Positions 3,182 to 26,761 of a DNA stretch of 64,000 bases are shown here, one piece after another. Made by a program: the position numbers and the translations under genes. The notes below the pieces were generated by a model. That model was not told the origin of the DNA and ran no database searches. It saw only the letters and a program-made list of their open reading frames with translations. The stretch comes from an uncultured Syntrophobacterales bacterium (GTDB lineage: Bacteria; Desulfobacterota; Binatia; UBA9968; JAJDTQ01). Numbering within the stretch: position 1 is the stretch's first letter; each line of letters begins with the position of its first letter. The stretch spans positions 223,746-287,745 of the forward strand of contig CAYTMJ010000001.1 in the NCBI GenBank assembly GCA_964438895.1, given 5' to 3'.

Positions 3182-3313
3182 AAAGGTTCTTTTATAGTCC
3201 AGGATTCATCAACATTGAATAACCGCGGCGATCGTCCCGGGTCAAGAGAGAAACCGTTCAGGCAGCCTGCGGATTATATCGCGGCACCGAAAGGCGGCAG
3301 GTAGGGGGCGTTG

Positions 3314-4864: not shown

Positions 4865-4881
4865 GAGCGGGACCTCCGAAG

Positions 4882-6411: not shown

Positions 6412-6415
6412 AACC

Positions 6416-10502: not shown

Positions 10503-11494
10503 CACAAACGACGCCCCGAACCGTCATTCTGGGAACGGGCTCCGCCGTCCCCTCCACAGTGGTCACTAACGACGAACTCGCCAAGTTCGTCGACACCAAC
10601 GACGAGTGGATAACCACCCGCACAGGCATAAAGGAACGGCGGGTGCTAGAAAAAACTCAGGCCGCCTCGGACCTGGCCCTACGCGCTTCGGAACAGGCTT
10701 TGGAGGACGCTGGCCTGGCAGCCGAAGACCTGAATGCCATCATCGTTGGCACCTGCACCGCCGATTACCAGATCCCCAGCCTAGCCTGCGTCCTGGAAGC
10801 CAAGTTGGGGGCGAAGGGCGTGTTCTCGTTCGACGTCAACGCTGCCTGCTCAGGATTCCTAAACGCCCTTTCCGTGACCGACATGTTTATTCGGTCGGGG
10901 CAGATCCGTAACGCCTTAGTAGTTGGCACCGATGTCTTGAGCCGCTTCCTTGACTGGCAGGACCGCGGCACCTGTATTCTGTTCGGCGACGGTGCCGGCG
11001 CTGCAGTCGTCGGCGCTAGCGATGACGAGGACCGAGGCATCCTATCCTCTCGACTTCAGACCGACGGTTCCTACGCTGAGACGCTCTACATCCGGGCCGG
11101 CGGTTCCAAGAAACCCGCAACACAGGAAACTGTGGAGAATCGTGAGCACACGCTCTTCATGAACGGCAAAGAAGTCTTCAAGGTAGCGGTACGATCGATG
11201 GAGGAGATCAGCCGCCAGGTCCTGGACGAAGCCAACCTTTGCGTGGATGACGTTTCCCTCGTCGTTCCCCATCAGGCCAACAAGAGGATCATCGACGCCC
11301 TGGCTTCGCGACTCAACATCCCGATGGAGAAGGTCGTCGTTACCGTACACAAGTACGGCAACACCTCGGCCGCGTCCATACCCGTGGCGCTGGACGAGGT
11401 TCGGAGGGAAGGGCGTATCGCAGCGGGCGATATTGTTCTTCTGAACGCCTTTGGCGCTGGCTTTGCCTGGGGCGCTTCGGTCATCCGATTCTGA
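10499..11494 (+). CDS. fabH: 3-oxoacyl-ACP synthase III
   Basis: FabH N-terminus (GTGSAVP) with a C-terminal [10 protein letters not shown] motif. The start is placed at ATG 10499, overlapping the fabF stop in an ATGA arrangement. Confidence 0.9.
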
Positions 11495-11524
11495 CGCTTC
11501 TTCTCACCAAATCGTGGCTTTCAC

Positions 11525-12391
11525 GTGATCCCGGCTGAAGCTTTTGCCCTCGCATGCGGGTTCTTCACCGCCATTAACCTGCTCCTTCTTAGGAAAGGGA
11601 TGGCGTACGGCAACGCCATCACCGCTACTCTTATCTCCCTGGCCATTAACGTTCTGTCGTTTTGGAGCTTCATCCTGGTCGCGCTTCCGTGGGACCAGAT
11701 TCTGCGTCCGGAGCTGTTGATCTTCGTATTGGTAGGGTTGATCCAGCCCGGTGGTACCCGCTTCCTCGCCTACGTGAGCGTCGAAAAGGTCGGGGTAACT
11801 GTGACGGCACCCATCCGCGCCACCACGCCGTTGTTTTCATCACTACTTGCCATCATGGTTCTAGGGGAACACTTCACACCTGCGGTAGGTGCGGGTACGC
11901 TGTTGGTGGTCATGGGTATCATCCTGCTCAGCGCACATGAGAAGCAAGGCGGCAAGTGGCTAAATGTCCTGGTTGCATTGCCGTTGTTGAGTGCGTTCTT
12001 GGCCGGTTCCACCCAGGTCATCCGTAAGATCGGCCTAGGACAGATTCACATGCCAATCCTGGGAGCTGGGGTCACCACTGGCACCTCCTGCCTCGTCGTG
12101 GCCCTCTCGTTGGCCGTCTCCCGAAAATGGTCGGCCCTCGACTTCAACCGGAAGTCCTTGGGCTACTTCATCGTCGCCGGCTGCGTTATGACCCTAGGCG
12201 TTGCCAGCGTATACATGTCCCTGTACCTGTCGGACGTGGTCATCGTTGCGCCGTTGGCGAGCCTTAGCCCCCTCTACAGTCTCGTGCTCTCCGCGATCTT
12301 CCTACGCGAGGTCGAGGTCATCACCACTCGGCGGGTAGTGGCAGCCGCCTTAATCGTGCTAGGTGTCGTGCTGATCACTGCCATTCGGTAA
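11525..12391 (+). CDS. EamA/DMT-family membrane transporter
   Basis: About 10 predicted TM helices arranged as a duplicated EamA-like unit. Confidence 0.6.
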   Translation: MIPAEAFALACGFFTAINLLLLRKGMAYGNAITATLISLAINVLSFWSFILVALPWDQILRPELLIFVLVGLIQPGGTRFLAYVSVEKVGVTVTAPIRATTPLFSSLLAIMVLGEHFTPAVGAGTLLVVMGIILLSAHEKQGGKWLNVLVALPLLSAFLAGSTQVIRKIGLGQIHMPILGAGVTTGTSCLVVALSLAVSRKWSALDFNRKSLGYFIVAGCVMTLGVASVYMSLYLSDVVIVAPLASLSPLYSLVLSAIFLREVEVITTRRVVAAALIVLGVVLITAIR

Positions 12392-12490
12392 GGGACAATA
12401 GGCCCTACTGCAGAGCCACCCAACAGAAGTCGTAACGGGCTTGGAGTCTCGCACGCAGCAGCTCACAATTTCGCCACCAAGGAGGCGCCC

Positions 12491-13123
12491 ATGAAAAAGA
12501 TATTCAGCGAACACGTAGCTGCCAACAGCGGTTGGTCCGGAGACCTCAAGAAAGGCCAAGTCATTCGCATCATCGCAATGTCCACAGTGGACTTCCTGGT
12601 ACTGGACCGACACAACCTTCGGGAACGGTTCGATCAGGCCCGCACCAAAGTCTACAACGGGAAGATCTTCCTCAGTACCGGCGACAAGCTAATGTCACGG
12701 GACAACCAGCATTTCATGACGATCGTAGCCGACTCCTTCGAGCAAGGGACCCACGATCTACAAAAGGGCATGTGTAGCGGTCGCCGCTTCCAACTAGCCA
12801 AGGAAGAGGGGCGCTTGCAGGAATATTACCACCGGGACTACAGGGACGATGAGATCCCAGACCACGGCTGCTGGGAGAACCTCTCCGGGGCACTAGAACC
12901 CCACGGGATTGCTCCCGAGGACATCCCGAGCCCGTTCAACATCTTCCAGCACATGATCATCGACGGGAACACCGGCCTCATGCAGCACACTACCGTACGG
13001 CCCAAGACGCCCACCCATGTCGATATGCTCGCCGAGCGGGACCTCTTGGCTGCCTTCAGTGCGTGCCCGGACATGCCAGTAGGCGGCAAGCCAGTGGACG
13101 TGGAGATTCTTGAGGAGGATTAG
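12491..13123 (+). CDS. DUF1989 protein (urea-carboxylase-associated / carboxyguanidine deiminase CgdA/B-like), copy 1
   Basis: Conserved segments ERFDQARTK, TIVADSF..G.HDLQKGMCS, HGC.ENLS and DIPSPFNIF. It is a paralog of the gene at 20755-21408. Confidence 0.7.
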   Translation: MKKIFSEHVAANSGWSGDLKKGQVIRIIAMSTVDFLVLDRHNLRERFDQARTKVYNGKIFLSTGDKLMSRDNQHFMTIVADSFEQGTHDLQKGMCSGRRFQLAKEEGRLQEYYHRDYRDDEIPDHGCWENLSGALEPHGIAPEDIPSPFNIFQHMIIDGNTGLMQHTTVRPKTPTHVDMLAERDLLAAFSACPDMPVGGKPVDVEILEED

Positions 13124-13189
13124 GAAGGTTCTACCAACACCCCTCCCTACAAATTATTCCAATTTGGGACGGCACAATGGGTACTAGTG

Positions 13190-13858
13190 TTATTCAAACC
13201 CCATGCGACGGCCCCAGTTGGAGGGATCTTTGAGGAAATCGACGAGCTGGTTCCTGCCATCCTCCGAAAAAAATTGCATCTCCTCGCCGACATTCAGAAC
13301 GTCGTCCCAGTTAGACAAGGTGTGGAGGCTGATCTCATGATCTGCCAGGTTCTTGCTTCCCTCATGCTGGTCAAGCTCGTCGGAGCTATACTCAAAAACG
13401 CAGAGACAGTGGGAAATCCGCGCCTTCTGCGCTCGAACACCAATGTTGAAGCGGAGTTTACTGAAACCATCAGTCACCAAATCCTCAACCAGCATAACGC
13501 GTTGTCCTTCCCCAAGAACGCCCTCGATCTGGTTGGTCTGTCCGTAACCCTTTGGGTTCTTGCGGATATAAATCATGGGTTTCCGGAGGTAGTGCGACAC
13601 GAAGGCAGCATAGGGAATCCCCGCAGTCTCACCACCGGCCACCACGTCGATTTTGTCGAGGCCGATGTCACGACGGGCGATTTGGGCCAACGCCTCGAGG
13701 ATCTCGTCCCGGGCATCTGGAAAAGACAGCACCCGTCGGCAGTCAATATAGACCGGTGAGACTCTGCCTGAGACGAATACGAACGGTCGCTCGCGGTACA
13801 CCTGAATCGATTGCGTGCTCAACAACAACTCGGCAATTCTTTTTCCAATATCGGACAT
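13190..13858 (-). CDS. pyrE: Orotate phosphoribosyltransferase
   Basis: PRPP-binding motif VMLVEDLVTDG and the AGGETAGIPYA segment. The start is placed at the internal Met (MSDIGKR), not the ORF-track start. Confidence 0.8.
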   Translation of the reverse strand: MSDIGKRIAELLLSTQSIQVYRERPFVFVSGRVSPVYIDCRRVLSFPDARDEILEALAQIARRDIGLDKIDVVAGGETAGIPYAAFVSHYLRKPMIYIRKNPKGYGQTNQIEGVLGEGQRVMLVEDLVTDGFSKLRFNIGVRAQKARISHCLCVFEYSSDELDQHEGSKNLADHEISLHTLSNWDDVLNVGEEMQFFSEDGRNQLVDFLKDPSNWGRRMGFE

Positions 13859-14025
13859 GGGCTGGTCCCTCACGTTTTTAGGACTACCATCCGGCGGCAG
13901 CCAGGCAGCCAAATAGCTCGCGGCGGTGGTGTCCTCTAACACGACCGAGCGTATTGTGCCACCCGTTTGACCGACCGCACTTTTTTGTTACCATTCAAGT
14001 CTTTCTGATCTCATCGAGTTGTCGG

Positions 14026-15285
14026 ATGGAAGTCCCGAAAATCAATCAAGAAAGACTGTTACGCGATCTCAACACTGTCTCGCGAATCGGGTTGGGTGAG
14101 GGAGGCTCGGTCACTCGACTTGTGTTTTCGGTGCCCGAGCTTCGCGCTCGTCAGCTGCTGGTTCATCTAATGAACCAAAGCGGACTCGACGTACGCGTAG
14201 ACCCTGTCGGCAACATCTTCGGACGGTTACCAACACCACCGAAAGGACCCGCAGTGCTTGCTGGATCGCACCTCGATTCCGTCATCCAAGGAGGTCGGTA
14301 TGACGGCCCGGTAGGGGTGATCGGGGCCCTCGAAGCGGTTCGGACTATCAAGGAAAGCGGCATGAACCTGCCGGCTCCGCTGGAGAGCGTCTGTTTCGTA
14401 GGCGAAGAATCGAGCCGGTTCGGGTTCGCGACCCTGGGCAGTAGCCTGGTAGCGGGAGACGTTACCATGGATGACTTCGCCAACGCGGTAGACGCCAGCG
14501 GCATCCGACTCGAGGACGTACTTTCAAGCATGGGAATCCATCAGGACAATCTTGTTTCCCTCAAACGCGATCCAAAAACTATCAAAGCTTACCTTGAACT
14601 CCACATTGAACAGGGGCCGATACTTGAATCCAAGAAAAAGAAAGTCGGCGTGGTCACCGCCATCGCCGCCCCAAGCCGATTCAGGGTAGTTTTCCGTGGG
14701 CAGGCGGATCACAGTGGCACCACACCCATGGAAATGCGCCGGGACGCCCTTGTCGCCGCCGGGCACCTAATAACCTATATCGATGAGGTGTGCCGAGAAC
14801 ACTCTTCCGCCAAGAGGGGCCGGGTAGTAGGTACGGTGGGTGCCATAAAGGTCGAGCCGGGGGTCATCAACGCCATCCCGGGGCGAACCGAACTCCAGGT
14901 CGATGTGCGCAGCATCACGCTCGGGTCCAAACGGAAGGTGGCTGCGCTCATCAAGAAACGGACTCGGGAGATCGCGCGAGAGCGGAGGGTGGAGGCCGAC
15001 ATTCTTACCATCAGAGATGAGGAGCCAGTTACCCTACACCCACGAGTGATCTCGCTCATCCGCACCGCTTGTCAGGAAAGACAACTTGCCTTCGAAGTCA
15101 TGCCATCAGGTGCAGGTCACGACGCTATGCAAATGGCCAAGATAACACCCACCGGCATGATCTTCATCCCCAGCGTTAAGGGAGTCAGCCACAACCCCAC
15201 GGAATGGACCGACCCCAAGGACATCTGCCTCGGGACGCAACTTCTAGTGGAAACCCTCCTCCGAGCCGCTTATGCAAAGATCTAA
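14026..15285 (+). CDS. M20-family Zn amidohydrolase (allantoate amidohydrolase / N-carbamoyl-amino-acid hydrolase / beta-ureidopropionase type)
   Basis: AllC/AmaB-like metal-binding motifs GSHLDSV and GxxD, plus a dimerisation domain. The start is placed at MEVPKI. Confidence 0.8.
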   Translation: MEVPKINQERLLRDLNTVSRIGLGEGGSVTRLVFSVPELRARQLLVHLMNQSGLDVRVDPVGNIFGRLPTPPKGPAVLAGSHLDSVIQGGRYDGPVGVIGALEAVRTIKESGMNLPAPLESVCFVGEESSRFGFATLGSSLVAGDVTMDDFANAVDASGIRLEDVLSSMGIHQDNLVSLKRDPKTIKAYLELHIEQGPILESKKKKVGVVTAIAAPSRFRVVFRGQADHSGTTPMEMRRDALVAAGHLITYIDEVCREHSSAKRGRVVGTVGAIKVEPGVINAIPGRTELQVDVRSITLGSKRKVAALIKKRTREIARERRVEADILTIRDEEPVTLHPRVISLIRTACQERQLAFEVMPSGAGHDAMQMAKITPTGMIFIPSVKGVSHNPTEWTDPKDICLGTQLLVETLLRAAYAKI

Positions 15286-15817
15286 GACAAACAAAACGAC
15301 CCCATTGCTTAGCGCAAGCCAGATAGCGAGGACCCTCGCTGGCTTTGCCCGCCTGATTTCTCGTGAACACCACACCTCCAACTCGTTGGCGTTCATCGGT
15401 GTCCACACCCGGGGACCAACCTTAGCCCGACGAGTGGCGAAGGTTTTGAGGGAGAAACACGACCTGTCAGTTCCCGTCGGCGAAATCGACCCCACGCTTT
15501 ACCGAGACGACCTCAACGCCCTACTGCCGGAGGGGTGCATCGACACCACCCACATAACTTTCCAAATCACAGACAAGACCCTAATCCTGTTCGATGACGT
15601 GCTCCACACGGGCCGCACAGTGCGAGCTGCCGTGGACCATCTGATGGCCCTCGGTAGACCCAAGGCCGTTTTCCTCGCCGTTCTGGTAGATCGCGGCGGG
15701 CGAGAGCTTCCCATAGAGGCCCGTTTCATCGGCAAGCAGCTCGAAGTACCTAACGGCACAAACGTGCACGTCAGGCTCACGGAAATCGATAAGGTAGACG
15801 AGGTCGTAGCGTACTAA
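15272..15817 (+). CDS. pyrR: Pyrimidine operon regulator / uracil phosphoribosyltransferase PyrR
   Basis: PRTase motif ILFDDVLHTGRT and the YRDD motif, with PyrR-like length and N-terminus. Confidence 0.85.
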   Translation: MQRSKTNKTTPLLSASQIARTLAGFARLISREHHTSNSLAFIGVHTRGPTLARRVAKVLREKHDLSVPVGEIDPTLYRDDLNALLPEGCIDTTHITFQITDKTLILFDDVLHTGRTVRAAVDHLMALGRPKAVFLAVLVDRGGRELPIEARFIGKQLEVPNGTNVHVRLTEIDKVDEVVAY

Positions 15818-15905
15818 CGACAAACCGCTTGACAACGTGGGTTGATAAGGGCTATGTGGCAGTCCTTGGCGCACACGGACCCTAAATTTACGCCCATCTA
15901 AGTTC

Positions 15906-16736
15906 ATGAGTAAGAACCAACAATTGCCTACAGATCCGCCGCAGGACCCGTCGTTCAAGTCGTCCCTGAAAGGCTTCTACAACCGTCACCGAATGGGTTC
16001 AAATTTCCTTGTTTCCATGTTGCTGATGCTGGCACTCTGGGAACTTGCCGACCGCATCCTCAACGACCCAGATTTCTTTGCCGGCCCCATCCTCGTGTTT
16101 ATCGAATATGGCGTGCTTCTCCAGGAGCCCCGCTTCTGGGAGCACGTGAGTTACAGCGGCACCGAGCTCGTCTACGGATTTGCCTTAGCCGTATCCCTGG
16201 GGGTCATCATTGGAGCGGGAGTGGCGTTCAGCCGGACTCTGGATGAGATGTTCTCACCCATTCTCGTGGGCCTCTACGCGACACCGCGCTCGGTGGCAGC
16301 CCCCCTATTTATCATATGGTTGGGACTTGGCATCGCTTCCAAGGTTGGGGTGATAACCCTCGCCTCGGTTTTTCCTGTGATCATCAACACCCAAGCCGGC
16401 ATCAAAAATGTACAGGGTGAGTACCGCATGCTGGGAAGGGCTTTCAACATCTCGTGGTGGTCGATGTTGGTGAAAATCATCATTCCGGGGTCCGTGCCGT
16501 TCCTGATCGCAGGCCTGAGACTAGGATACTCGCGGTCCGTGGTCACCATAATGGTGGCTGAGCTTTTCGGAGCCGAGGCGGGCATCGGCTATATGATAGA
16601 CCACGCCGCTCAGACATTCCATGTGGCGGAGATGATGGTGGGTATTACACTGTTAACCATGCTGGGAGTCGTAGGAAATGAGCTCCTGAAATTTCTCGAA
16701 CGCTGGGCCACCCCCTATAAGGAGACTCTGGTCTAG
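15906..16736 (+). CDS. ABC transporter permease (NitT/TauT family)
   Basis: Six TM helices and an EAA-like loop; it is the first of two tandem permease genes. Confidence 0.85.
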   Translation: MSKNQQLPTDPPQDPSFKSSLKGFYNRHRMGSNFLVSMLLMLALWELADRILNDPDFFAGPILVFIEYGVLLQEPRFWEHVSYSGTELVYGFALAVSLGVIIGAGVAFSRTLDEMFSPILVGLYATPRSVAAPLFIIWLGLGIASKVGVITLASVFPVIINTQAGIKNVQGEYRMLGRAFNISWWSMLVKIIIPGSVPFLIAGLRLGYSRSVVTIMVAELFGAEAGIGYMIDHAAQTFHVAEMMVGITLLTMLGVVGNELLKFLERWATPYKETLV

Positions 16737-16751
16737 GTCGATGGGAAACTC

Positions 16752-17537
16752 ATGGACGCCCTGAGAAACATATATCAGACACAGCGCAAACTACTGAATG
16801 CGATCCTAGGTTTCGCCGTTGTGTTCATTGTCTGGGGGGTTGCCGACCAGCAGGTAGGGAGCGAACTGTTCTTCGTTGGGCCGTGGCGGGTCGCCACCTA
16901 CACGTACGAGCTCTTTGCCAGCGGGGCGATCCTTGATGATCTCCAAATCAGTGGCATCGAATTTTTCTGGGGTTACGGTACCGCTGCGGTGGTGGGCGTC
17001 AGCTTGGGAATGATCTTCGGCATCAGCCGGGTCTTTCGGGAGTTCTTCGATCCTTGGCTCAGCGCACTCTATGCCACGCCTTCCGTGGCTCTGGCACCCT
17101 TAATCATCGTTTGGTTTGGCATAGATCTCACCGCCAAGATCGTCGTCGTCCTTATCAGTGCCGTAGTACCCATCATCCTGAACACCTACACAGGCGTGCT
17201 AAGCGTCGGTAAGGAATTTCAGATGCTGGCCGCATCCTTCTGCACCCCCAAGAATCAGGTCCTCTACAAGATCCTCATTCCGGGTTCACTCCCATACATT
17301 GTTACGGGTCTGCGCCTGGGGATCTCCCGGGGGATCGTGGGGGTCGTGGTGGGAGAATATTTCGGCGCCTATGCGGGACTGGGCTACCAATTGTTTTATG
17401 GGCTAGACACGTACAACATGCCGCTGATGATGTCCTGTGCCGCCATGCTGGCCGGCACCGGCGTCCTTTTCAATCACGTTATCCTCGTCATAGAACGACG
17501 TATGGCGCCGTGGCGTGATTCCACATTGCAGGAGTAG
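16752..17537 (+). CDS. ABC transporter permease (NitT/TauT family)
   Basis: Paralogous to the upstream permease. Confidence 0.85.
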   Translation: MDALRNIYQTQRKLLNAILGFAVVFIVWGVADQQVGSELFFVGPWRVATYTYELFASGAILDDLQISGIEFFWGYGTAAVVGVSLGMIFGISRVFREFFDPWLSALYATPSVALAPLIIVWFGIDLTAKIVVVLISAVVPIILNTYTGVLSVGKEFQMLAASFCTPKNQVLYKILIPGSLPYIVTGLRLGISRGIVGVVVGEYFGAYAGLGYQLFYGLDTYNMPLMMSCAAMLAGTGVLFNHVILVIERRMAPWRDSTLQE

Positions 17538-17540
17538 TTC

Positions 17541-18332
17541 GTGGCATCATCCATACAAGTAGACCAAATCCACAAGACCTTCATCAAACCCACCGGAGAA
17601 ACCGTACATGCAGTGGGTGGTATTACCATGGATCTGCAGCCGGGGACGTTCTATTCGTTCGTCGGACCCAGCGGATGTGGCAAGACCACCTTGCTGCATA
17701 TGATCCACGGGCTGCTGCCCCCCACCACGGGCCGGGTGCTTCTCGATGGGGAAGAGGTGACAGGCCCGACACCCAACAAGGCCGTAGTGTTCCAACAGGC
17801 GTTGCTGCTGCCTTGGCGTACCGTGACGGAAAACATCAAGTTCGGGATTGAGAACGACCGCGACAAGACCGCCGCTGACAAGCAGGAGATCTGCGATAAA
17901 TATACTCAAATTGTCGGGCTGCGCGGCTTCGAAGGGCATTATCCTCACGAGCTTTCGGGCGGTATGCAGCAAAGAGTGAACCTCGCCCGAGCGCTAGCAG
18001 TGGATCCTGAAATCCTCTTGATGGACGAGCCCTTTGCATCGCTTGACGCCCAGACTCGCCTGCTCATGCAGGAGGAACTCCAGCGCATGGTGGACTGGAA
18101 GAACTCCGGCAAGATCGTTATCTTCGTCACCCACGACATCGAAGAGGCCGTCTTTCTTTCGGACGTCGTGTTCTGCTTCAGTTTCAGGCCAGGAACAATC
18201 ATGAAGCAGATTTCGGTACCCTTCCCCACCCCGCGGACGTTGCGGGTCAAAGAGGAGCCCGAATTTTTGCAGATCAAGCACGATATATGGGAGTTGCTGT
18301 CGGATGAAGCCCGTAAGGCCATGGAGGAGTAG
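17541..18332 (+). CDS. ABC transporter ATP-binding protein
   Basis: Walker A motif GPSGCGKTT, ABC signature LSGGMQQR and Walker B motif LLMDEP. Confidence 0.9.
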   Translation: MASSIQVDQIHKTFIKPTGETVHAVGGITMDLQPGTFYSFVGPSGCGKTTLLHMIHGLLPPTTGRVLLDGEEVTGPTPNKAVVFQQALLLPWRTVTENIKFGIENDRDKTAADKQEICDKYTQIVGLRGFEGHYPHELSGGMQQRVNLARALAVDPEILLMDEPFASLDAQTRLLMQEELQRMVDWKNSGKIVIFVTHDIEEAVFLSDVVFCFSFRPGTIMKQISVPFPTPRTLRVKEEPEFLQIKHDIWELLSDEARKAMEE

Positions 18333-18461
18333 GGCGGGAAGACTAGGCCACAGATTCTCATAGAGAAACGTCAAATGGAGTCAAATGCCGGAAGGCCGGC
18401 GCTCAACTGACCGAAAGCAAAAGGGAACTAGGAATTCATTCCAAAAAGAAGGAGGGTAGAA

Positions 18462-19481
18462 ATGGAACTTAAGCGCATTTCAAAAGGAATCGCCGCAATC
18501 GTCCTGGGCGTTGGCTTGCTCTGGGGTGGCCAGTCGCTCGCACTGGATGATCTCCGTATCCCGGTTGCGATGACCAGCACCACCACAGCCTTGGTGGAGC
18601 AGACGGCCATCTATAAGGGCTTCTTTAAGGAGATCGGCTACAACGCCAAGGTCTACTCGGTATCGGGTGGCGAGCAGGCCGCCGTCCTCGCTTTGGAACG
18701 GGGCCAACTCCCTTTCTTTGGCACAGATGACAACATCCCTCTCGCGCTCCGACCTGGCAGCAATATCCGAGTCGTCGGTAGCGAGATGAACACCCTGCCA
18801 TACTGGTTAGTGGGTGGAAAAAACTTCAAGTCCTACAAGGACTTGCCGCGGCCCGTTAAGGTCGGAATAAGCTCTCCTACCTCGGGCAACGTCTACGTGT
18901 CCCTCAAGCTGCTCGAAACTGCCGGCATCCCGCAGAAAGACACACGCTTGATCAAAGTCGGCGGATCGTCGGGACGGCTTGCGGCCGTCAAAGCGGGTAA
19001 GGTCGATGTAGGCTCACTCACTTTCGGCGTGATGCTTCGAGCCAAGGAAGCGAACCTGTCGATCCTTGGCGCCGCAAACCAGTTCGTCAAGGAATACGCG
19101 TTCCTTCAACTGGCCATGAACAAGAACTACATAAAGAACAAGCCGGAAAAAGCCACAGCCATGCTTGGCACTCTCATTCGCGCTTGTGCTTTCGTGAACG
19201 ACCCCAAGAACCGCGACGAGGTACTGCATGTCATTACCAAAGTCATGCGCAACAAGCCGAACATCGGTAAAGAAATGTACGAGACCGAGGTCATTGAGCA
19301 AGGCGCCATACCGAACCGGTGTCAGGTAACGAAGGCGGGAATCAAGTCGTACATCGATTCCGCTATCTGGAGCAAATCCCTGGACGCAAAGTACGCGAAC
19401 GCATCGACGGACGACATCATGCTCCCCAAGTTCTACAACAAGGCCTTGGCCTGGTTTAACAACAAGGGGTGGAAGAAGTAG
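18462..19481 (+). CDS. ABC substrate-binding protein (NMT1/THI5 / SsuA-TauA-like) with signal peptide
   Basis: An N-terminal signal peptide plus periplasmic binding protein architecture, located in the same operon as the permeases and ATPase. Confidence 0.8.
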   Translation: MELKRISKGIAAIVLGVGLLWGGQSLALDDLRIPVAMTSTTTALVEQTAIYKGFFKEIGYNAKVYSVSGGEQAAVLALERGQLPFFGTDDNIPLALRPGSNIRVVGSEMNTLPYWLVGGKNFKSYKDLPRPVKVGISSPTSGNVYVSLKLLETAGIPQKDTRLIKVGGSSGRLAAVKAGKVDVGSLTFGVMLRAKEANLSILGAANQFVKEYAFLQLAMNKNYIKNKPEKATAMLGTLIRACAFVNDPKNRDEVLHVITKVMRNKPNIGKEMYETEVIEQGAIPNRCQVTKAGIKSYIDSAIWSKSLDAKYANASTDDIMLPKFYNKALAWFNNKGWKK

Positions 19482-19508
19482 GACAGAGATTCCAGGAGTT
19501 GAAGTGTA

Positions 19509-19556
19509 GAAAAGGGACCTTTCCGACGTTACGTGCGCCGGAGGGTCCCTTTTTAT
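19509..19556. terminator. Bidirectional hairpin terminator between convergent genes
   Basis: The stem aaaagggacc...ggtccctttt has an inner tccg/cgga extension and a T-run on the + strand and an A-run on the - strand. It overlaps the stop of the minus-strand M20 gene. Confidence 0.5.
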
Positions 19557-20758
19557 TCCACCAACAGTTGAAGGGCAGCCGCAGCATAGATCCTAGCTGC
19601 CTGGCGTACCTGTTCCAGCGGGACTATTTCGGCATCGGTGTGCGCGAAGGCGAGATCTCCCGGACCGAACATAACGGTTTCGATAGCCTTCTCGTTCAAG
19701 TACCCCGCATCAAGCGCTGCCGGGAACCAGATCGGCGATCCCTTCTCCCCGGCGATTTCACGCGCCGCACCCAGAGCCGCGGCCACCTGGCTGCCTTCTG
19801 ACACCTCAGACGGATACATGAAATTGCCCTGACTAACTTCCACCTGCCAGGGCGTGATGTCCGCCAATGCCCGGGAAATAGCGGCCAACGCCTCCTGAGG
19901 CTCCTCACCCGGCAAGAGACGGCGGTCCAGCATTAACCGACAATGGTCCTGAATGGTGTGCAGAATGTCAGGGCCGCTCTCGATATGAGTGGCCACCAGG
20001 CTCGCCTCACCGAGTCCCGGGTGGACAAAGCCACCTACCAGGCCGTCGAGGCGCTCTAACACCGCTCGCGCCCCGTCCACCGCATTAACCCCAGCCCATG
20101 GCGTGCTGCTGTGGCATGACTTACCCCGCACCACAACGTCCACATCGATCCTACCCTTATTGCCCAGGCAGACGTGATTAGTAGTGCCCAGGCCGACAAT
20201 ACCGTAACGGGCCAAAAGCCCGCCTTCCTCCAGCATATATCGAGCCGCATCGTGCCGCCCGGTCTCACCGGCCGTGCTCACGGCCAGCAACAGCGGCCGC
20301 GCCAACTCTCGCCCCGACCGTCGCACGACGGCCGCTGCCTCCAGCATGGCGGCCAGCGCAGCCTTTTGCTCACAACCTCCCCGGCCCCACGCGCACGGCC
20401 CCTGAAGCCCGTAGGGCTCCCCGGGCACAATCCTTCCCGAGAACGGCTCCGGCATCGAAGCCGCCGGGAACGTCATCGCGTAGCCCATGAAGAGCAGGCC
20501 TTGCGCCAATGCCGCTCCCACGCCCCCGAACTGCCAGAGCAGATTTCCCATTCCGTCGGCGACAGGTGCCACCCCAGTGAGATCTTCGATTCTCGCCGCC
20601 ACCACCTCCGCCACGAAGGCCTTAAGGGCCGGATCGGCTTCCATGAGCTCCGTGTGGACGGACGGGACCCGCAGCAACTCCGTGAACAGCGCGTCCAGCT
20701 CCGGATCGGAGACGTGAAGGTCTGCGATCTGAACGGCTTCCCTAGCATCCATCGTCAC
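19553..20758 (-). CDS. M20-family peptidase (ArgE/DapE/acetylornithine deacetylase-like)
   Basis: 401 aa with the M20 metal-binding pattern. It is translationally coupled by a 4-bp overlap to the DUF1989 copy upstream of it. Confidence 0.75.
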   Translation of the reverse strand: MTMDAREAVQIADLHVSDPELDALFTELLRVPSVHTELMEADPALKAFVAEVVAARIEDLTGVAPVADGMGNLLWQFGGVGAALAQGLLFMGYAMTFPAASMPEPFSGRIVPGEPYGLQGPCAWGRGGCEQKAALAAMLEAAAVVRRSGRELARPLLLAVSTAGETGRHDAARYMLEEGGLLARYGIVGLGTTNHVCLGNKGRIDVDVVVRGKSCHSSTPWAGVNAVDGARAVLERLDGLVGGFVHPGLGEASLVATHIESGPDILHTIQDHCRLMLDRRLLPGEEPQEALAAISRALADITPWQVEVSQGNFMYPSEVSEGSQVAAALGAAREIAGEKGSPIWFPAALDAGYLNEKAIETVMFGPGDLAFAHTDAEIVPLEQVRQAARIYAAAALQLLVE

Positions 20759-21408
20759 GATTCCTCCCGCTCGAACAACTCAACCCGGATCTCCCGCCCC
20801 CGGCCAGACTCCGGACACGCACTAACAGCCACCAGGCACGCCATCTCGGCGTGAAAGTCGACACGAGCCTCTTCCCGAGGACGGACGAATGTATCGAACA
20901 TTGCGCCGGTTTCCGAGTCAATTCGCATGGTTTGAAAGATGTTAAATGGGCTCGGAATGTCCACCGGCGAAATACTCCACGGGCGTAGGGCCTCCGACAG
21001 GTTCTCGTAGCACCCGTGGGTGGGGATGTCCTCCAACTTTTTGGGATTGGGGTCGATACCCTCTATAAAGTTCCGCTGAGCTAGTCCCGCAGCCACCAGC
21101 TCGAATCGTTTCCGGCTACACATGCCCTTCTGCAGGTCGTGCCGCCCTTCGCGAAAGCTATCCGCCACAATAGTCAGCAACGGATTATTGAGCTTCGACA
21201 GGAGCTGGTCCCCGGTGCTCATAAAGACCTTCGCCTGATTGGTCTTGGTCCTAGCCTGATCGAACCGCTCGGTGAGTTCGTGTAGGTTGAAGGCAACGAA
21301 ATCCACAACTGATCGGCCGGCCACCCGAATATACTGCCCCTTCTCTACAGAAACTGCGCGGCCCGTGTTCTTAGGCACCACCACACTGCTGAGCACATTG
21401 TCTGCCAT
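20755..21408 (-). CDS. DUF1989 protein (CgdA/B-like), copy 2
   Basis: About 55-60% identical by eye to copy 1, with the same conserved blocks. Confidence 0.7.
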   Translation of the reverse strand: MADNVLSSVVVPKNTGRAVSVEKGQYIRVAGRSVVDFVAFNLHELTERFDQARTKTNQAKVFMSTGDQLLSKLNNPLLTIVADSFREGRHDLQKGMCSRKRFELVAAGLAQRNFIEGIDPNPKKLEDIPTHGCYENLSEALRPWSISPVDIPSPFNIFQTMRIDSETGAMFDTFVRPREEARVDFHAEMACLVAVSACPESGRGREIRVELFEREES

Positions 21409-21556
21409 GTCTCCACCTACTCTATCCGTGAATTCGTACGCCTTTCAGTTTATGGCGCGACCATCCCCGAGTAAAGGCCTATCCCGGATGAGCTTGCGCA
21501 AAACAAACACTTTTGCTAACCCCAAATGGTTCGGAATCTCAACAAGGAGCATCATC

Positions 21557-22273
21557 ATGTTTACCGACAAAGTCGAACTCAAAGACTTCGAAAAGATGGA
21601 CCCGGAGTACCAGGAGCTGCTGAAGCGGGTCCTCGAGATTCAGTGTGACTGCGAGATCGGGGGCCCACATCTTTACATAGAAGATATGCTTCCCAACGCC
21701 CCGTCAAAGTTGGACCGACTCGTTGTAGCCCGTACTGCAGCCGAAGAGATGGACCACTACCGAAAAATGGCGCGCCTAGCCGGGGACATCGGAGAAGACG
21801 TGTCCCATGTTTTGAGTTCACCGAACCAGAAGCGGTATGTAGAGGCCTTCCGCGGCAAGATCACCACCTGGGAAGACTTCGCCGTCTTTGGTTTTTTGAT
21901 CGACCGGGTGGGCCAGTTCCAGCTCCACGAGTTTGAGGACTGCAGCTATCTCCCGCTTGCAGAGATCCTTCCGTCCATGGAGCAGGAGGAGATCGGACAC
22001 ATCTCCTATGGTACCAATCTGACTCGTGAGATGGCGGACAAGGGAGGCGAATCAAAACAACGGGTCCAGAAGTCCATCGACTATTGGTACGTCAAGGGCC
22101 TGGATATGTTTGGTCGGAACGAGTCGAAGCGCTCCGAGCGGTACCGCTACTGGGGGCTCAAGAGACGAACCAACGCTCAGCAGCGCGAGGAGTACACCAA
22201 CGAAATTAACGCCTTGATCGAGAGCATGGATCTTGAAATCCCCGATCCCAGCGTAGGTCGACTCTACACCTGA
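21557..22273 (+). CDS. Ferritin-like diiron-carboxylate protein (PaaA/PaaC-type oxygenase subunit-like)
   Basis: Two ExxH motifs (EEMDH, EEIGH) plus additional Glu ligands. The start is placed at ATG 21557, which has an AAGGAG RBS; the upstream part of the ORF-track entry overlaps the neighbouring gene and was rejected. Confidence 0.55.
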   Translation: MFTDKVELKDFEKMDPEYQELLKRVLEIQCDCEIGGPHLYIEDMLPNAPSKLDRLVVARTAAEEMDHYRKMARLAGDIGEDVSHVLSSPNQKRYVEAFRGKITTWEDFAVFGFLIDRVGQFQLHEFEDCSYLPLAEILPSMEQEEIGHISYGTNLTREMADKGGESKQRVQKSIDYWYVKGLDMFGRNESKRSERYRYWGLKRRTNAQQREEYTNEINALIESMDLEIPDPSVGRLYT

Positions 22274-22285
22274 GAATCCATCGAA

Positions 22286-22474
22286 ATGCCACAGACACCA
22301 AAACACGTAGAACTAGATGAGCACCTAAAGGAGTGCATCACTGCGCTCAAAGGGGCTGCCAATCAAGGTATTGTGAACATAAAGGACGAAGAGACCGTAG
22401 AACAGGCCCTCCAAGACTGCCAGGAGGTCATGGACATGGTGATGGAGGGAAAAGTTTCCGAGTGGCTGAAGTGA
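22286..22474 (+). CDS. Small acidic hypothetical protein (62 aa) in the diiron/ETF operon
   Basis: The ORF lies tightly between the diiron gene and etfB on the same strand. No recognisable family. Confidence 0.35.
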   Translation: MPQTPKHVELDEHLKECITALKGAANQGIVNIKDEETVEQALQDCQEVMDMVMEGKVSEWLK

Positions 22475-22570
22475 CCAGCTCGGAATCCCATCCCTCTCTC
22501 ACCACCATTTTCGAGTTCGCGGCCTAGCCCGCACATCGAGTTCCCACTACCGCACCGGAGGTTTGTAACG

Positions 22571-23350
22571 TTGGACATTGTCGTCTGCGGCAAGATCATA
22601 CCTGCCAGCACCGTTACCACCGAGATTGACCCCGCCACCAAGCGAATGATCCGCAAGGGCGTCGCCCACGAGCTAGATCCGGCTGCGGCCAGCGCCGTAG
22701 AAGAGGGTTTGCGCCTGATGGAAAAGGTGGATGGGTCGGTCACTCTAGTAACCATGGGTTTCAACGAAATCACCATCGGCATCAGGACAGCGCTGGCCAT
22801 GGGAGCAACTTCCGCAATTCACATCTTTGACGACGCCCTGGCGGGGTCCGACGCCTTATCTACCGCCAAGGCCCTGGCCGCAGCAATCCGAAAGAAACCC
22901 TTCGACCTCATCATCTGCGGTACGGAGAGTAGCGACAGCTATTCCGGCATCGTCCCCGGCCAGCTCGCGCGACTACTGGGGGTCCCGCCGGTCACTTTCG
23001 CCAACGAGATGATCATTGAGGGAACGACGCTTACCATCAAACGCCAAAGCGAGGCAGGCTATGACGTGGTGGAGGCGGACCTGCCTGCGCTAGTAACGGT
23101 CACCAGCGGAATCAACGAACCCCGCTACCCACAGCTCAAGGGCATAATGTCAGCCAAGAAGAAGGAGATCCTGCAATTGTCCGTCGAGGATCTCGGGCTG
23201 ACGCCGGACGACGTGGGTGAGCCGGGTGCTAGAGAGAAGGTTCTGGAGATCGGCCGACCACCCACGCGAGATATCGGTGACGTGGTAGAGGACGACGGAG
23301 ACGGGGGTAAACGAATCGCCGAATTCCTAACTGAGGCCAAGGTCATATGA
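22571..23350 (+). CDS. etfB: Electron transfer flavoprotein beta subunit
   Basis: N-terminus MDIVVCGK plus ETF-beta fold motifs. Confidence 0.9.
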   Translation: MDIVVCGKIIPASTVTTEIDPATKRMIRKGVAHELDPAAASAVEEGLRLMEKVDGSVTLVTMGFNEITIGIRTALAMGATSAIHIFDDALAGSDALSTAKALAAAIRKKPFDLIICGTESSDSYSGIVPGQLARLLGVPPVTFANEMIIEGTTLTIKRQSEAGYDVVEADLPALVTVTSGINEPRYPQLKGIMSAKKKEILQLSVEDLGLTPDDVGEPGAREKVLEIGRPPTRDIGDVVEDDGDGGKRIAEFLTEAKVI

Positions 23351-24312
23351 TGTCTGATATCATTTGGGTCTACGGCGAGGTGGTGGATGATTCCGTCACC
23401 TCCACCACACTGGAGATGGTGACCAAGGCCACCGAAGTAGGTACCGCCGAGGTGATCCTGTTAGGTCCGGCACCCGATGACTCCGTGGAGTTGTTGGGTC
23501 GGTACGGCGCTAGCAAAGTCTACCGTTCAATGGACCCGGTCTTCCGCGAGTACCTGACGCTACCGGCAGTGGTGGTAGTGGAATCTCTCATCCGTAAACA
23601 CGAACCTTCGGTAGTCCTCTTCGCATCCAGCTACAACGGCCGCGACGTGGCAGCGGCCCTAAGCGCTAGCCTCGACTGCGGTGCCATTACCGACGTAGCG
23701 GACTTCACCCTTACGAACGGTACGCTAGAGGCCAAGATTCCGGCCCTGGGAGCAAGCTACTGGAACACATCCACCCTGGTGCACGACGACGTCAAATTGC
23801 TGCTGGTAAGACCCAAGGCGTTCGAGGCTACTGAGAGTCCCAAGAACCCGGAAGTGGAGGAGATAACACCCGCCGATGACGCTGACCTTCGCAAGATTCG
23901 GGTCAAGGAAAGGGTCGCAGCCAAGGCCGAAGGGCCCCAGTTGGAGGGCGCCAAAGTCATTGTAGCCGGCGGACGCGGCTTGGCCGGACCCGAACACTTC
24001 GACATGCTTCGGGAGTTGTCCGAATTGTTAGGAGGTGCCGTGGGGGCCACTCGCGCCGTCGTCGACTCGGGCTGGGTGCCCTACTCACTCCAGATCGGAC
24101 AGACTGGAAAGACTGTGAAACCCGACCTCTACATTGCCTGTGGCATCTCTGGAGCCGTGCAGCACCTGGCTGGCATGAAAGACTCAAAGCTGATCGTTGC
24201 CGTCAACAAGGATGCCGACGCCCCGATCTTCCAAATGTGCGACTTAGGAATCGTGGGCGACGTGTTCAAGGTCATCCCTCAGTTAATCGAAGAGATTAAA
24301 TCACGCAGGTGA
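23347..24312 (+). CDS. etfA: Electron transfer flavoprotein alpha subunit
   Basis: C-terminal FAD-binding region [12 protein letters not shown]. The gene overlaps etfB by 4 bp. Confidence 0.9.
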
Positions 24313-24581
24313 AGCGCCGCAAACAAAACCCCAAGTTCCTGCAAAGTTCCCTGTTCCGCTAGAGGACAAATCTCCCCTTGGGATTGAGTCGTAAACGACC
24401 GGGGGGTTCGTCCATCCGTACCCTTCAAAATAGGACTACCCTCGTTACGTGCCTAATAACACGGCACAAATCGTCGACGAGAACGGCGCTGATCGACGTT
24501 TCCGTCGACGCGCCATCCAGAGCCTCCTGAGAAAACACGTTATTTCAGTACCTTAGATTTGTGGAGTGTCTGGCATGAGTT

Positions 24582-24854
24582 TTGCTTAACTTAAGTAGTA
24601 AATCTCATTTGGACAAGGAACCATCAATGAAATCACTCGTGCTTCTCGATGTTATCAAAGCGGTAGGCGAACACGCGGAGACTTCCAATGAACTAAAGGT
24701 CGTTGTGGCCCACCTCATCAACAGCGGGAAGGTCAAACTAAACGGCGACCTCGCTGGTTGCAAGGTCGACTGTCGCCCGAATGCGGATCGGCAGGCCGTC
24801 GTTGTTGGGTTTCAAACCACACTGCCCCAACAGAAACTGGACGAAGCGGGCTAA
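24582..24854 (+). CDS. Hypothetical small protein
   Basis: An ORF at the left edge of the low-GC segment with no family recognised. The true start may be the internal Met (MKSLVLL). Confidence 0.3.
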   Translation: MLNLSSKSHLDKEPSMKSLVLLDVIKAVGEHAETSNELKVVVAHLINSGKVKLNGDLAGCKVDCRPNADRQAVVVGFQTTLPQQKLDEAG

Positions 24855-25098
24855 CAAGGGTCGGCAGGCCCCCTTTTTCCTGCGCGAAGGTGAGGTGCGA
24901 TTCCTTCTGTATGCACCAACCGCATTGATAACTATTCAGAATCAATAGAAGGTCCAAAAGGGTGATTGTGAATCAGAGTTGCTACGGTAGATACTCTACA
25001 GTTATAAGTGGAACTACTGGCATGCTTTCGAGATCGATCAACATATAGAACAAGATCTTTTCAACAATGGTAGCCATTAGGAAGCTGACGGTTTTTCC

Positions 25099-26049
25099 AT
25101 GAAAACGGTAAGTTTTTTGGCTTTAGGGGCTTTTTCTTATCAGTTGGAGCCTGTTATTTCACTGCTACGGTCAGATTATCGTCACCAGGTCGAGTTTATA
25201 CCGCAAAGCGACCTCAACGAATCTTTGGATCGTTTTTCTCTAAATACAGACCTCATTGTAACGGTGCATTCAATAGGTGATGGGCTTTCTGAGTTTCTAA
25301 ATATGGCAAGGAATTCGGGGATCCTATCTCTTACTATCCAAGATGGAATTATTGAACATTGTCACGCTTGGCTGAAGCCCCGTTCACGCAACTTCTATCG
25401 ACCAATCCTCACAGATAAGATTGCTGTTATGGGATCGTTTTCCCGGGATATTCTAATTGCGTGGGGTGCAGAACCTAATTCTATTGCAATCACCGGCTTG
25501 CCAAGAATGGATTATTTGCCCGAAATACCTGCTCCTTTTGGAGATAGTTTGCTTTTGACATGTGCAAATACCCCTTTTTATGATGACGATACCAAAATGC
25601 ACTTTAAGCAGTTTATGATGCATTTGATTAATGAATTTGAAACTCGTCACATAGACTATGTAGCCCGCCTACCTAAGTCGGTATATGAACTTCTCGAATA
25701 TAGAATTCCAAAAGAATCATACTCAGATTCGTCTGATAGGAGATCCCTCAGAGAGGATTTAGGTAGATCGAGTGCAGTACTTACGACTATGAGTACTGTC
25801 GCCCTCGAGGCGATGGCATGCCATCGCCCCACAGCGATAATCAACCCAGAAAATATGACCCAGTATTTTCATACGCCGTGGACCATAAGCTCAACAGACC
25901 AAGCCTCCAAAGTGATTTCTGAATTATTATCGGCTCCCGCTGAAAAGATGATATTTCAAAATTATGTGTTGAGCCAACATCTAAGGATCGACAACTCTTC
26001 AACCGATCGCGTATGTCAACTCATTAACACCATGCTCCTGGAATCGTAA
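25099..26049 (+). CDS. Putative surface-polysaccharide biosynthesis protein (GT-B-like glycosyl/glycerophosphotransferase-like)
   Basis: Low GC and a Rossmann-like C-terminal half resembling capsule or teichoic-acid-type transferases. The assignment is tentative. Confidence 0.4.
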   Translation: MKTVSFLALGAFSYQLEPVISLLRSDYRHQVEFIPQSDLNESLDRFSLNTDLIVTVHSIGDGLSEFLNMARNSGILSLTIQDGIIEHCHAWLKPRSRNFYRPILTDKIAVMGSFSRDILIAWGAEPNSIAITGLPRMDYLPEIPAPFGDSLLLTCANTPFYDDDTKMHFKQFMMHLINEFETRHIDYVARLPKSVYELLEYRIPKESYSDSSDRRSLREDLGRSSAVLTTMSTVALEAMACHRPTAIINPENMTQYFHTPWTISSTDQASKVISELLSAPAEKMIFQNYVLSQHLRIDNSSTDRVCQLINTMLLES

Positions 26050-26761
26050 AGAGGGCTTGTTTATTGTTTATCCCCGCGCAATACACCCAGTCTGCTGCCA
26101 TCCGGCCTGTTTGTGGTCTTTTGGTCTAACCTAGCCATATTGGGGTAGCCGTGGCCCAGTCGCGCCTAACACATCAAGAACCTCGAGGAGCCGGTTCGAA
26201 AAACGGTGTCATAGCCGGTCACATTTACCTTAGCGATCCATCATTGGGCCTGCGATTACCCGGGTGGGTTAGGCGGCTCAGATCAGGGTGTGCTTGGCGA
26301 ATTCCGCCCCCCTATCGAAGATGAGGGAGCGTCAGAAGGCCGCGGCAGGCAGCGCTCTGACGGTCCAGACCTTTGATCCGGATTTCGATGCTGGCGATGC
26401 GTTCGTCAAGGTAGTCGGCTGCTTTTGTCTCAGCACTACCATTCAGCTGGAATTGACTCTCCTACGCTCCTCTGCCGCAAGGACATAAGCACAGCGACAC
26501 CAAAAACAGGTTTTGTCTTTGAGCAAATAATCTAGAGTAACCACTCAGAACATAAGCTGGTATGATTTCTACTGGGTCGTGGAGCCTTCCTACCGGTCGA
26601 ATCGCCGCAATGTAGATCGTACAATACCGGCAAAACGACAAGATTGCCTTTCACAGCACGTGGCGGCAGGTTAAGCGATCGCAAACAGCGCTGCCACATA
26701 AATATTGGTTGTTTTTTGCAGTAAAGAACGGAAAGATCTAATTGGGGATTCGAGATTAGAT

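Follow-up and report, generated by a model that had tools for sequence, protein, structure and literature searches.

The question raised by this locus is whether two DUF1989 paralogues, here called A and B, make up a carboxyguanidine deiminase like CgdA/CgdB or something else. They lie in a 64-kb stretch of DNA from an uncultured Syntrophobacterales bacterium, which belongs to a Candidatus Binatia lineage (contig CAYTMJ010000001.1; the whole stretch is called the window), where they bracket an ATP-binding cassette (ABC) importer and two M20-family genes. A sequence-only reading of the window had described them as a CgdA/CgdB-like pair that may serve one pathway together with the genes between them. 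Judged by sequence comparison, A and B are not CgdA/CgdB but members of a separate, strongly conserved and previously undescribed subfamily of PF09347, which is divided into A-type and B-type orthologue groups. The locus is a variant within a known family, not a new kind of system. Gene calls in the window are based on a map of open reading frames (ORFs) and on Pfam and NCBIfam scans, which give the two paralogues as follows.

12491-13123, plus strand: DUF1989 paralogue A, 210 amino acids (aa), Pfam score 110 bits against a cut-off of 27, A-type orthologue group
20755-21408, minus strand: DUF1989 paralogue B, 217 aa, Pfam score 116 bits against a cut-off of 27, B-type orthologue group

A and B form a subfamily of their own

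Membership of the DUF1989/PF09347 superfamily is judged by the Pfam gathering score and the fold, and both proteins qualify on score. They are 49% identical to each other, less than the 55-60% estimated earlier. UAAP2 (TIGR03424) is the best NCBIfam model for both of them, but A reaches only 78.9 bits and B 72.8 bits against its cut-off of 285; with UAAP1 (TIGR03425) the scores are 59.1 and 51.0 against 206, and the NCBIfam TDM model matches weakly. Reference UAAP1 and UAAP2 proteins were taken from Pantoea and Rhizobium plasmid operons of canonical make-up (binding protein, permease, ATPase, UAAP1, UAAP2 and urea carboxylase, with or without the allophanate hydrolase gene atzF), and A and B are 22-31% identical to these. 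In two neighbour-joining trees, both built from a small sample with no bootstrap, the A-type and B-type proteins are sister clades that lie outside the UAAP1+UAAP2 clade and far from the domains of trimethylamine N-oxide (TMAO) demethylase. This position suggests that the duplication that gave rise to A and B was independent of the CgdA/CgdB duplication. CgdA and CgdB are defined as monophyletic clades of the PF09347 tree in PMC11410670; the CgdAB features used here come from secondary citations and from sequence.

The subfamily is compact and well conserved. Among about 24 related Binatia genomes A shows 84-91% identity, falling to 65-73% in more distant Binatia, and B orthologues are 71-84% identical (79-84% across species-level genomes). 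Across distant Binatia and a few metagenome-assembled genomes (MAGs) assigned to other phyla, A-type and B-type orthologues are about 70% identical. Such high identity of A and B across genomes points to strong purifying selection. A search with A of 1.84 billion representatives clustered at 50% identity gave only 22 matches at E<=1e-30, and 522 at E<=1e-3. All of the closest genome loci come from MAGs of Candidatus Binatia, some of which carry the labels Deltaproteobacteria, Thermodesulfobacteriota or Syntrophobacterales, and the proteins are named "urea carboxylase-associated family protein" or "YcgI (DUF1989)" in the source databases. A search of one literature library found no paper on this subfamily and none pairing Binatia with guanidine.

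The AlphaFold2 model of A (mean predicted local distance difference test score 79) matches only the DUF1989 structures 3DI4, 3SIY and 3ORU, which are its top Foldseek matches (probability 1.00, template modelling score 0.69-0.71, E about 1e-11 to 1e-12). A profile search of solved structures recovered DUF1989 structures at E about 1e-11, plus the new TDM structures. The best matches among solved structures, 3DI4 (SPO0365) and 3ORU/3SIY (TM1040_0329), are single-domain proteins of a size similar to A and B but only 20-25% identical to them, and because they are likewise uncharacterised they are no guide to the substrate of A or B.

Predicted zinc site of A and B

In the alignment, the site residues D34, H88-D89, C95, H125, C127 and C192 are intact in A and B and invariant in all orthologues. 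The corresponding zinc-binding cysteines and Asp are defined in TMAO demethylase (TDM) in PMC12560246 and in the cryo-EM work PMC13619132, and the latter reports that the 3Cys:Zn site binds substrate and that D220 is essential. C285, C301 and C365 of TDM align with C95, C127 and C192 of A and B, and D220 aligns with D34. The UAAP1 proteins of Pantoea and Rhizobium are without the Asp and two to three of the Cys residues, whereas UAAP2 keeps the site. A and B both read D-H-D-C-H-C-C, which does not match the CgdAB pattern of one site-bearing and one degenerate subunit; since both keep the site, both resemble the site-bearing partner. The intact residues lead us to read A and B as active zinc-dependent enzymes that break C-N or C=N bonds, and the two proteins would bind zinc and cleave a C-N bond with no need of a biotin carboxylase.

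DUF1989 proteins have two characterised precedents, the conversion of carboxyguanidine to allophanate and NH3 and the conversion of TMAO to dimethylamine and formaldehyde. A canonical carbamoylase accompanies DUF1989 proteins both here and on a Klebsiella plasmid (described below), so the carboxyguanidine type of chemistry is favoured over the TMAO type. In PMC13619132, TMAO demethylase (PDB 9Q59/9Q5L/9Q5A) has a DUF1989 core with a 3Cys:Zn centre and an essential Asp, residues that align with those of A and B. However, it is about 790 aa long, has an extra N-terminal DUF1989-like domain and a C-terminal GcvT/tetrahydrofolate (THF) domain, catalyses demethylation to dimethylamine (DMA) and formaldehyde, and shares only about 24-28% identity with A and B, from which it is distant in the tree.

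Gene content and predicted control of the locus

The other features of the locus are these.

12440-12490, plus strand: putative sigma-70-like promoter and leader of A; TTGGAG, 17-nucleotide (nt) spacer, CACAAT; leader of about 20 nt with an AAGGAGG ribosome-binding site
13190-13942, minus strand: pyrE (orotate phosphoribosyltransferase); NCBIfam TIGR00336 112.5 against 106.8, NF001729 243.4 against 245
13954-15285, plus strand: AllC/N-carbamoyl-amino-acid amidohydrolase-type M20; TIGR01879 400.6 against 204, NF006771 457.3 against 399
15272-15817, plus strand: pyrR (PyrR/uracil phosphoribosyltransferase); NF003549 176.7 against 138
15906-18332, plus strand: NitT/TauT-family ABC importer, with permeases at 15906-16736 and 16752-17537 and ATPase at 17541-18332; Pfam BPD_transp_1 twice and ABC_tran
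18462-19481, plus strand: NMT1/THI5-like periplasmic substrate-binding protein; Pfam NMT1 and NMT1_2
19553-20758, minus strand: non-canonical ArgE/DapE-type M20 (the variant M20); PF01546 70.5 bits, PF07687 (dimerisation) 45.6 bits
21409-21480, minus strand: putative sigma-70-like promoter and leader of B; TTTACT ... CATAAACT at about 21447-21475 of the minus strand; leader of about 38 nt

The ORF map and the domain scans confirm all of the genes that had been listed from the sequence, at the same coordinates. pyrE had been called convergent, which is true with respect to A, but it is divergent from the AllC-type M20 gene. Translation of pyrE probably begins about 28 codons into its ORF (the annotation in the related locus L001 is 222 aa long), and that of the AllC-type M20 gene probably near 14026. 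pyrR overlaps the stop of the AllC-type M20 gene by 14 nt. The start of the variant M20 ORF overlaps the stop of B by 4 nt, B being the first gene of this two-gene unit. A distance of 7.6 kb separates the convergent A and B genes.

No ORF in the 64-kb window exceeds 700 aa, the length of the longest, and no urea/guanidine carboxylase or allophanate hydrolase domain is found among the window ORFs scanned. The sole biotin enzyme in the window (Carboxyl_trans, biotin carboxylase and biotin carboxyl carrier protein, 3311-6919) is of the acyl-CoA-carboxylase type, and the earlier statement that the window holds no guanidine/urea carboxylase stands. The earlier failure to recognise a ykkC-type riboswitch is borne out as well. 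An Rfam covariance scan of the whole window, both leaders included, gave no match at the gathering score, and at E<=10 the region 11400-22700 gave only two chance matches to eukaryotic families and none to guanidine families. Riboswitch or other RNA control was rejected on this basis and because the leaders of A and B, only about 20-40 nt long, are too short for a riboswitch.

The A promoter element, TTGAAA...CACATT, lies at the same position in all 8 related loci that carry both genes, and the B element, CCTTTACTCG...CGCCATAAACTG, is kept in the window and in L006, L008, L010 and L027 (four of the 8). Consensus and conservation together suggest that A and B each have their own promoter. In a general scan, predicted promoters and terminators were no more numerous than in shuffled sequence. 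Two further control elements were considered and rejected: a shared operator upstream of A and B, as no common 8-mer is conserved in both upstream sets, and a conserved regulatory element in the divergent region between pyrE and the AllC-type M20 gene (13859-14025), as this region ranges from 19 to 330 nt among L001-L029 and is too variable in length between relatives.

Proteins encoded alongside A and B

The AllC-type M20 protein passes the curated family cut-offs, and its H..D, EE, H and H metal motifs are seen in the alignment. It falls below the specific equivalogs (AllC TIGR03176, 292 against 598; ErtE, 415 against 520). Its closest solved relative is 3N5F, the N-carbamoyl-L-amino-acid hydrolase of Geobacillus (E=8e-87), followed by ureidoglycolate hydrolase and allantoate amidohydrolase. 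The order M20-pyrR-permease is kept in all loci of the clade. The pyrR protein passes NF003549, and Rfam finds no PyrR RNA element anywhere in the window.

The importer is complete, as had been proposed: it has two permeases, an ATPase and an NMT1-type binding protein, and with best matches among Ssu, Tau and Nrt components it belongs to the NitT/TauT family. The permeases match SaoP/SsuC/TauC/NtrB best and the ATPase SaoA/NtrCD/TauB, all below the NCBIfam equivalog cut-offs. The only solved relative of the binding protein is 3qsl (E=3e-5), which has only a generic name. Orthology to a guanidine/urea importer was considered and rejected, as the binding protein has no significant similarity to that of the Pantoea guanidine/urea operon ("putative urea ABC transporter"). 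The binding-protein gene is single in the window, whereas related Binatia have 2-4 tandem paralogues that are 68-80% identical (L001:16461-20633; L016; L009, L012-L014, L020, L021, L025, L026), which suggests rapid diversification of the ligand range of the importer.

The variant M20 protein was compared with solved DapE and ArgE structures in three independent alignments. The canonical ligands, which we take to be H80, D112, E144/E145, E169 and H355 in ArgE and H67, D100, E134/E135, E163 and H349 in DapE, are mostly replaced together with the general base: the first metal His by Y93, the bridging Asp by E130, the Glu pair by G164/E165 and the second-site Glu by L190. The zinc-1 ligands and the general base are among the residues replaced, while the last metal His is kept as H373. 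The residues now at these positions are invariant in 19 orthologues that are 71-100% identical, and the same residues are present in a 61%-identical relative (L128:3619-4851, minus strand) that lies near an A-type gene in a locus with a VOC-type protein. New invariant residues have been gained (C122, C129 and H169-D170), and there is a G164-E165-T166 motif. The Pfam M20 and dimerisation domains are both present, but the protein scores far below every NCBIfam equivalog cut-off. Compared with the ArgE/DapE deacylases (PDB 7RSF for ArgE, 7UOI and 3TX8 for DapE), it is alike in its catalytic and dimerisation domains, its length and its last metal-binding His, but differs in the substitutions listed (the Glu pair reading GE) and in the new invariant Cys, His and Asp residues. 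Its residues suggest that it is either a pseudo-enzyme acting as a partner or an enzyme whose metal site has been rebuilt.

Both M20 proteins had been put forward as carbamoyl-hydrolases. The AllC-type protein is canonical, but with most of its canonical metal residues gone the variant M20 is not to be counted as a second one. Its coupling to B, also noted earlier, holds up: in addition to the 4-nt overlap, the two genes are tightly linked in 19 genomes. A further copy of the variant M20 gene is found at L101:1638-2831.

Taken as a whole, the locus resembles CgdAB loci in the Pfam family and fold, in having two paralogous genes per locus, in the Asp/His-Asp/3-Cys site shared with UAAP2, in the NitT/TauT-like ABC importer nearby and, plausibly, in the type of chemistry, in which a carbonyl-substituted guanidine or amidine loses NH3 by hydrolysis. 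However, CgdAB genes are adjacent and co-transcribed whereas A and B are convergent and distant, there is no carboxylase, allophanate hydrolase or guanidine riboswitch, and the binding protein is unrelated. The CgdA/CgdB assignment fails on this last point as well as on the UAAP scores, the separate sister clades and the presence of a zinc site in both proteins.

DUF1989 genes in other contexts

DUF1989 genes without a carboxylase are common on plasmids. The Klebsiella plasmid locus L089 (WP_032432505/WP_032432506) has an amino-acid ABC importer, a carbamoylase-type M20 gene overlapping a DUF1989 gene and a cupin-type regulator, and no carboxylase; its M20 protein is 31% identical to the AllC-type M20 of the window (E=6e-67). 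The combination of DUF1989, a canonical hydantoinase/carbamoylase-family M20 and an ABC importer is that of the window, but the single DUF1989 protein is of another clade (25-26% identity), the importer is of the polar-amino-acid type and the operon is likewise uncharacterised. In Variovorax, DUF1989, a PuuE-like deacetylase and an amidase are encoded beside a polyamine-type importer, and in Palleronia three DUF1989 genes are interleaved with those of an amino-acid ABC importer. On plasmids of Skermanella (L087:7229-8591) and Chryseobacterium (L090:5320-6591), the gene directly upstream of DUF1989 encodes a homologue of the guanitoxin N-hydroxylase GntA. These GntA-linked proteins are 30-33% identical to A and B and lie nearest the A/B clade in the first, smaller tree but apart from it in the larger one.

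The wider superclade that includes A and B offers two more contexts. A mostly marine sister clade (L105-L124 and L141; for example L113:5287-7140) has three consecutive DUF1989 paralogues, alongside divergent genes for an FMN-reductase-like protein, an acyl-CoA ligase and an enoyl-CoA hydratase, and a gene for a small GNAT protein. In the metagenome contig L103 (322-5917), hutF and hutI-hutH, all of which pass NCBIfam equivalog cut-offs, are followed by two DUF1989 genes in tandem, one of which encodes Ala at the catalytic Asp position. A link to histidine utilisation was considered and rejected, as hut genes are found in none of about 20 orthologous sister-clade loci and L103 is a one-off. 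The themes that recur around DUF1989 are multi-paralogue sets and the company of C-N hydrolases and importers, with no biotin carboxylase.

A proposed carboxylase-independent role

With neither a carboxylase nor a riboswitch at the locus, a carboxylase-independent role in C-N hydrolysis is a reasonable inference. This part of the sequence-only reading survives, with the Klebsiella locus as a parallel, although its CgdAB framing and its second M20 hydrolase do not. The explanation preferred here, held tentatively and at somewhat less than even likelihood, is that A and B are carboxylase-independent zinc C-N hydrolases (deiminases or deaminases) that possibly feed the canonical carbamoylase.

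On this explanation, the convergent A and B genes, each read from its own promoter, would enclose a cassette of importer, N-carbamoyl/allantoate-type M20 and PyrR genes, and B would be co-transcribed with the variant M20, whose dinuclear metal site appears remodelled. The importer would take up a nitrogen-rich ureide, guanidino or N-heterocyclic compound, which A and/or B would deiminate, possibly with the variant M20 as a partner. By analogy with the conversion of carboxyguanidine to allophanate, the likeliest reaction would be a hydrolytic deimination or deamination, in which an amidine or guanidine bearing an N-acyl or N-carbonyl substituent would release ammonia and become a ureido (N-carbamoyl) product that the AllC-type carbamoylase could cleave to an amine, CO2 and NH3. 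The activity, the substrate, any complex of A with B or of B with the variant M20, and the link to the cassette are all features that we infer. A stronger form of the proposal, which is rather doubtful, is that A and B, possibly with the variant M20, are a new carboxylase-independent zinc-Cys3 deiminase system that takes ammonia from an imported acyl-guanidine, amidine or N-heterocycle, with a conventional carbamoylase completing mineralisation. If true, the route through guanidine carboxylase, CgdAB and allophanate hydrolase would have a counterpart that needs neither ATP nor biotin and is widespread in uncultured soil and sediment Binatia.

Conservation of the gene neighbourhood

The arrangement was followed through 85 related loci searched with the window proteins. 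In L006-L029 (24 species-level genomes, A 84-91% identical) there is one order: A, pyrE, the AllC-type M20, pyrR, two permeases, the ATPase, one to four binding-protein genes, the ArgE-type M20 and B. In L001 no difference in order is seen over the 10-kb flank, which extends to four binding-protein genes in tandem, and the full arrangement is also present in the more diverged L101 (B 77%). In all, the arrangement is kept in about 25 related genomes.

Several observations weigh against the proposal that A, B and the cassette act together and weaken the idea that the pair brackets one pathway. The housekeeping flanks of the close clade are equally syntenic (upstream accC/accB, tatC, a histone-deacetylase-family gene, fabF, fabH and EamA; downstream the PaaA/PaaC-like gene and the electron transfer flavoprotein (ETF) genes), so the order of the locus there reflects general synteny and is weak evidence of function. 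B has been cleanly lost in L028 (17062-18600) and L029 (OZ251459.1, OZ241979.1), where A, the cassette and the variant M20 are kept and about 130 nt separate the variant M20 from the PaaA/PaaC-like gene. In more distant Binatia (65-73%), A on the plus strand and B on the minus strand converge at a distance of 2.3-6.3 kb in 10 of the 22 loci that have a full 10-kb downstream flank, and the genes around and between them encode a 407-aa double-VOC protein, alpha/beta hydrolases, Ldh_2, bicupins, PuuE-like deacetylases and orphan NMT1/NMT1_3 binding proteins. No M20 or ABC permease genes accompany A and B in these loci, and the link to the cassette is not universal. In the metagenome contig L179, A and B converge 33 nt apart with nothing between them. 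L098-L100 lie on the same chromosomal backbone and have the PaaA/PaaC-like gene pointing one way and then pncB, B and pyrE pointing the other, with gaps of 48 and 8 nt (L098:8576-11355), and no A, M20 or importer gene within 10 kb. The DUF1989 + M20 + NitT/TauT combination, proposed earlier as a check, is therefore kept in the close clade but absent from distant Binatia and from L098-L100. Three further points concern the proteins themselves: convergent, separately transcribed genes are unusual for an obligate heteromer, the variant M20 may be inactive, and the TDM precedent is of a fold that also does non-hydrolytic C-N chemistry.

The simplest reading of these comparisons is a conserved convergent pair, A and B, with variable content between the two genes. 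The cassette is present between pyrE and B in the window lineage and absent from the pncB-B-pyrE lineage, which would reflect either insertion or loss. A reading of the distant loci as a ureide pathway was rejected; their Ldh_2, deacetylase and cupin proteins match AllD-/PuuE-type models best but far below the cut-offs, and this is a hint only.

These comparisons bear most directly on the possibility that the genes are neighbours by descent, which is somewhat unlikely but is the main rival explanation. The function of A and B would then be separate. In one Binatia lineage the AllC-type M20, pyrR and the importer would have been inserted between pyrE and B, and together with pyrE they would serve pyrimidine/ureide salvage or nitrogen scavenging. 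The interval between A and B, which ranges from 33 nt to 9 kb among Binatia with unrelated content, is what would be expected, as are L098-L100, with only pncB-B-pyrE on the same backbone (PaaAC/ETF ... fabH/fabF/HDAC/tatC), the retention of the cassette in L028 and L029 after the loss of B, the equal synteny of the flanks and the differences in promoter and orientation between A, B and the cassette. Descent does less well with the coupling of B to the variant M20, which is invariant wherever both genes are present, with the survival of the full arrangement down to 71-77% identity (L101), and with the independent combination of DUF1989, carbamoylase-type M20 and importer on Klebsiella plasmids.

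Other readings of A and B

The phosphoribosyltransferase genes raise the possibility, an improbable one, that A and/or B are nucleobase-type deaminases that remove the amino group of a pyrimidine or pyridine (an acyl-amidine resembling cytosine or isocytosine, or a carboxylated analogue), after which the product would be salvaged by PyrE, PyrR (as uracil phosphoribosyltransferase) or PncB. A abuts pyrE in about 25 genomes, pyrR is inside the bracket, pncB, B and pyrE are co-directional and closely spaced in L098-L100, and in PMC13619132 the authors of the TDM structures compare the 3Cys:Zn centre with cytidine deaminases. However, such adjacency is limited to lineages of one syntenic backbone and is found near A or B in neither distant Binatia nor the sister clades. 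Moreover, pyrE is a housekeeping gene, nicotinamide is not an amidine, and Rfam detects no PyrR RNA site in the window.

It is quite improbable that A and B are TDM-like C-N lyases or demethylases that convert an N-oxide or N-methylated compound to an amine and an aldehyde. Their zinc and Asp residues are identical to those of the TDM core, the NCBIfam TDM model matches weakly, and in L002 and L003 the genes gcvTHP and folD are found at a distance of 7-10 kb from A. This proximity is confined to two closely related contigs, however; in the window A and B are neither fused to nor next to a GcvT/THF domain, and TDM domains cluster far from A and B in the trees.

True carboxyguanidine deiminase activity, with guanidine carboxylase and allophanate hydrolase supplied in trans or by genes elsewhere in the genome (the fallback offered by the sequence-only reading), is disfavoured and very improbable: A and B share the Pfam family and the two-paralogue set with CgdAB, and canonical operons also have a NitT/TauT-like importer, but both equivalog models are failed by a wide margin, both subunits are UAAP2-like with zinc sites and fall outside the Cgd clades, the binding protein shows no relation to that of canonical operons, the window has no guanidine riboswitch, and none of more than 100 related loci examined has a urea carboxylase adjoining A or B.

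Implications for annotation

PF09347 proteins are routinely annotated as "urea carboxylase-associated" and are taken in surveys as markers of guanidine/urea assimilation. A large conserved branch that is not CgdAB, lacks a carboxylase and is common in Binatia means that such annotations over-call guanidine metabolism. Binatia are abundant in soils and sediments. The family is mis-annotated at scale, and the subfamily is abundant in this uncultured phylum. If the preferred deiminase hypothesis is true, A and B would extract nitrogen from guanidino, ureido or N-heterocyclic compounds in an ATP-independent manner, and they would be a second example of a multi-paralogue DUF1989 enzyme besides CgdAB, with an M20 protein with a rebuilt metal site as partner. 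A, B, the variant M20, the carbamoylase and the binding protein are a small defined set for expression and substrate screening.

Additional observations in the window and related loci

Divergent from B, at 21557-24312 on the plus strand, are genes for a PaaA/PaaC-like ferritin-fold protein and for ETF beta and alpha. This trio adjoins the B-type gene across the Binatia backbone, including the cassette-free L098-L100. A DUF3891 protein is encoded directly upstream of the A-type DUF1989 gene in L128 (97-915), the locus in which the variant M20 relative lies near an A-type gene, and DUF3891 is also found near the GntA-DUF1989 pair of the Chryseobacterium plasmid (L090:12148-12588); this recurrence may be a coincidence. 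The G+C content of the window drops from about 0.57-0.59 to 0.47-0.51 at 24000-28000, 32000-40000 and 44000-52000. These stretches contain an asparagine-synthase-like gene, genes for a polysaccharide pyruvyl transferase, a cytidylyltransferase and a PD-(D/E)XK protein, and ORFs without a Pfam match (25099-26049, and 35059-37161 of 700 aa), and they may be acquired surface-polysaccharide islands.

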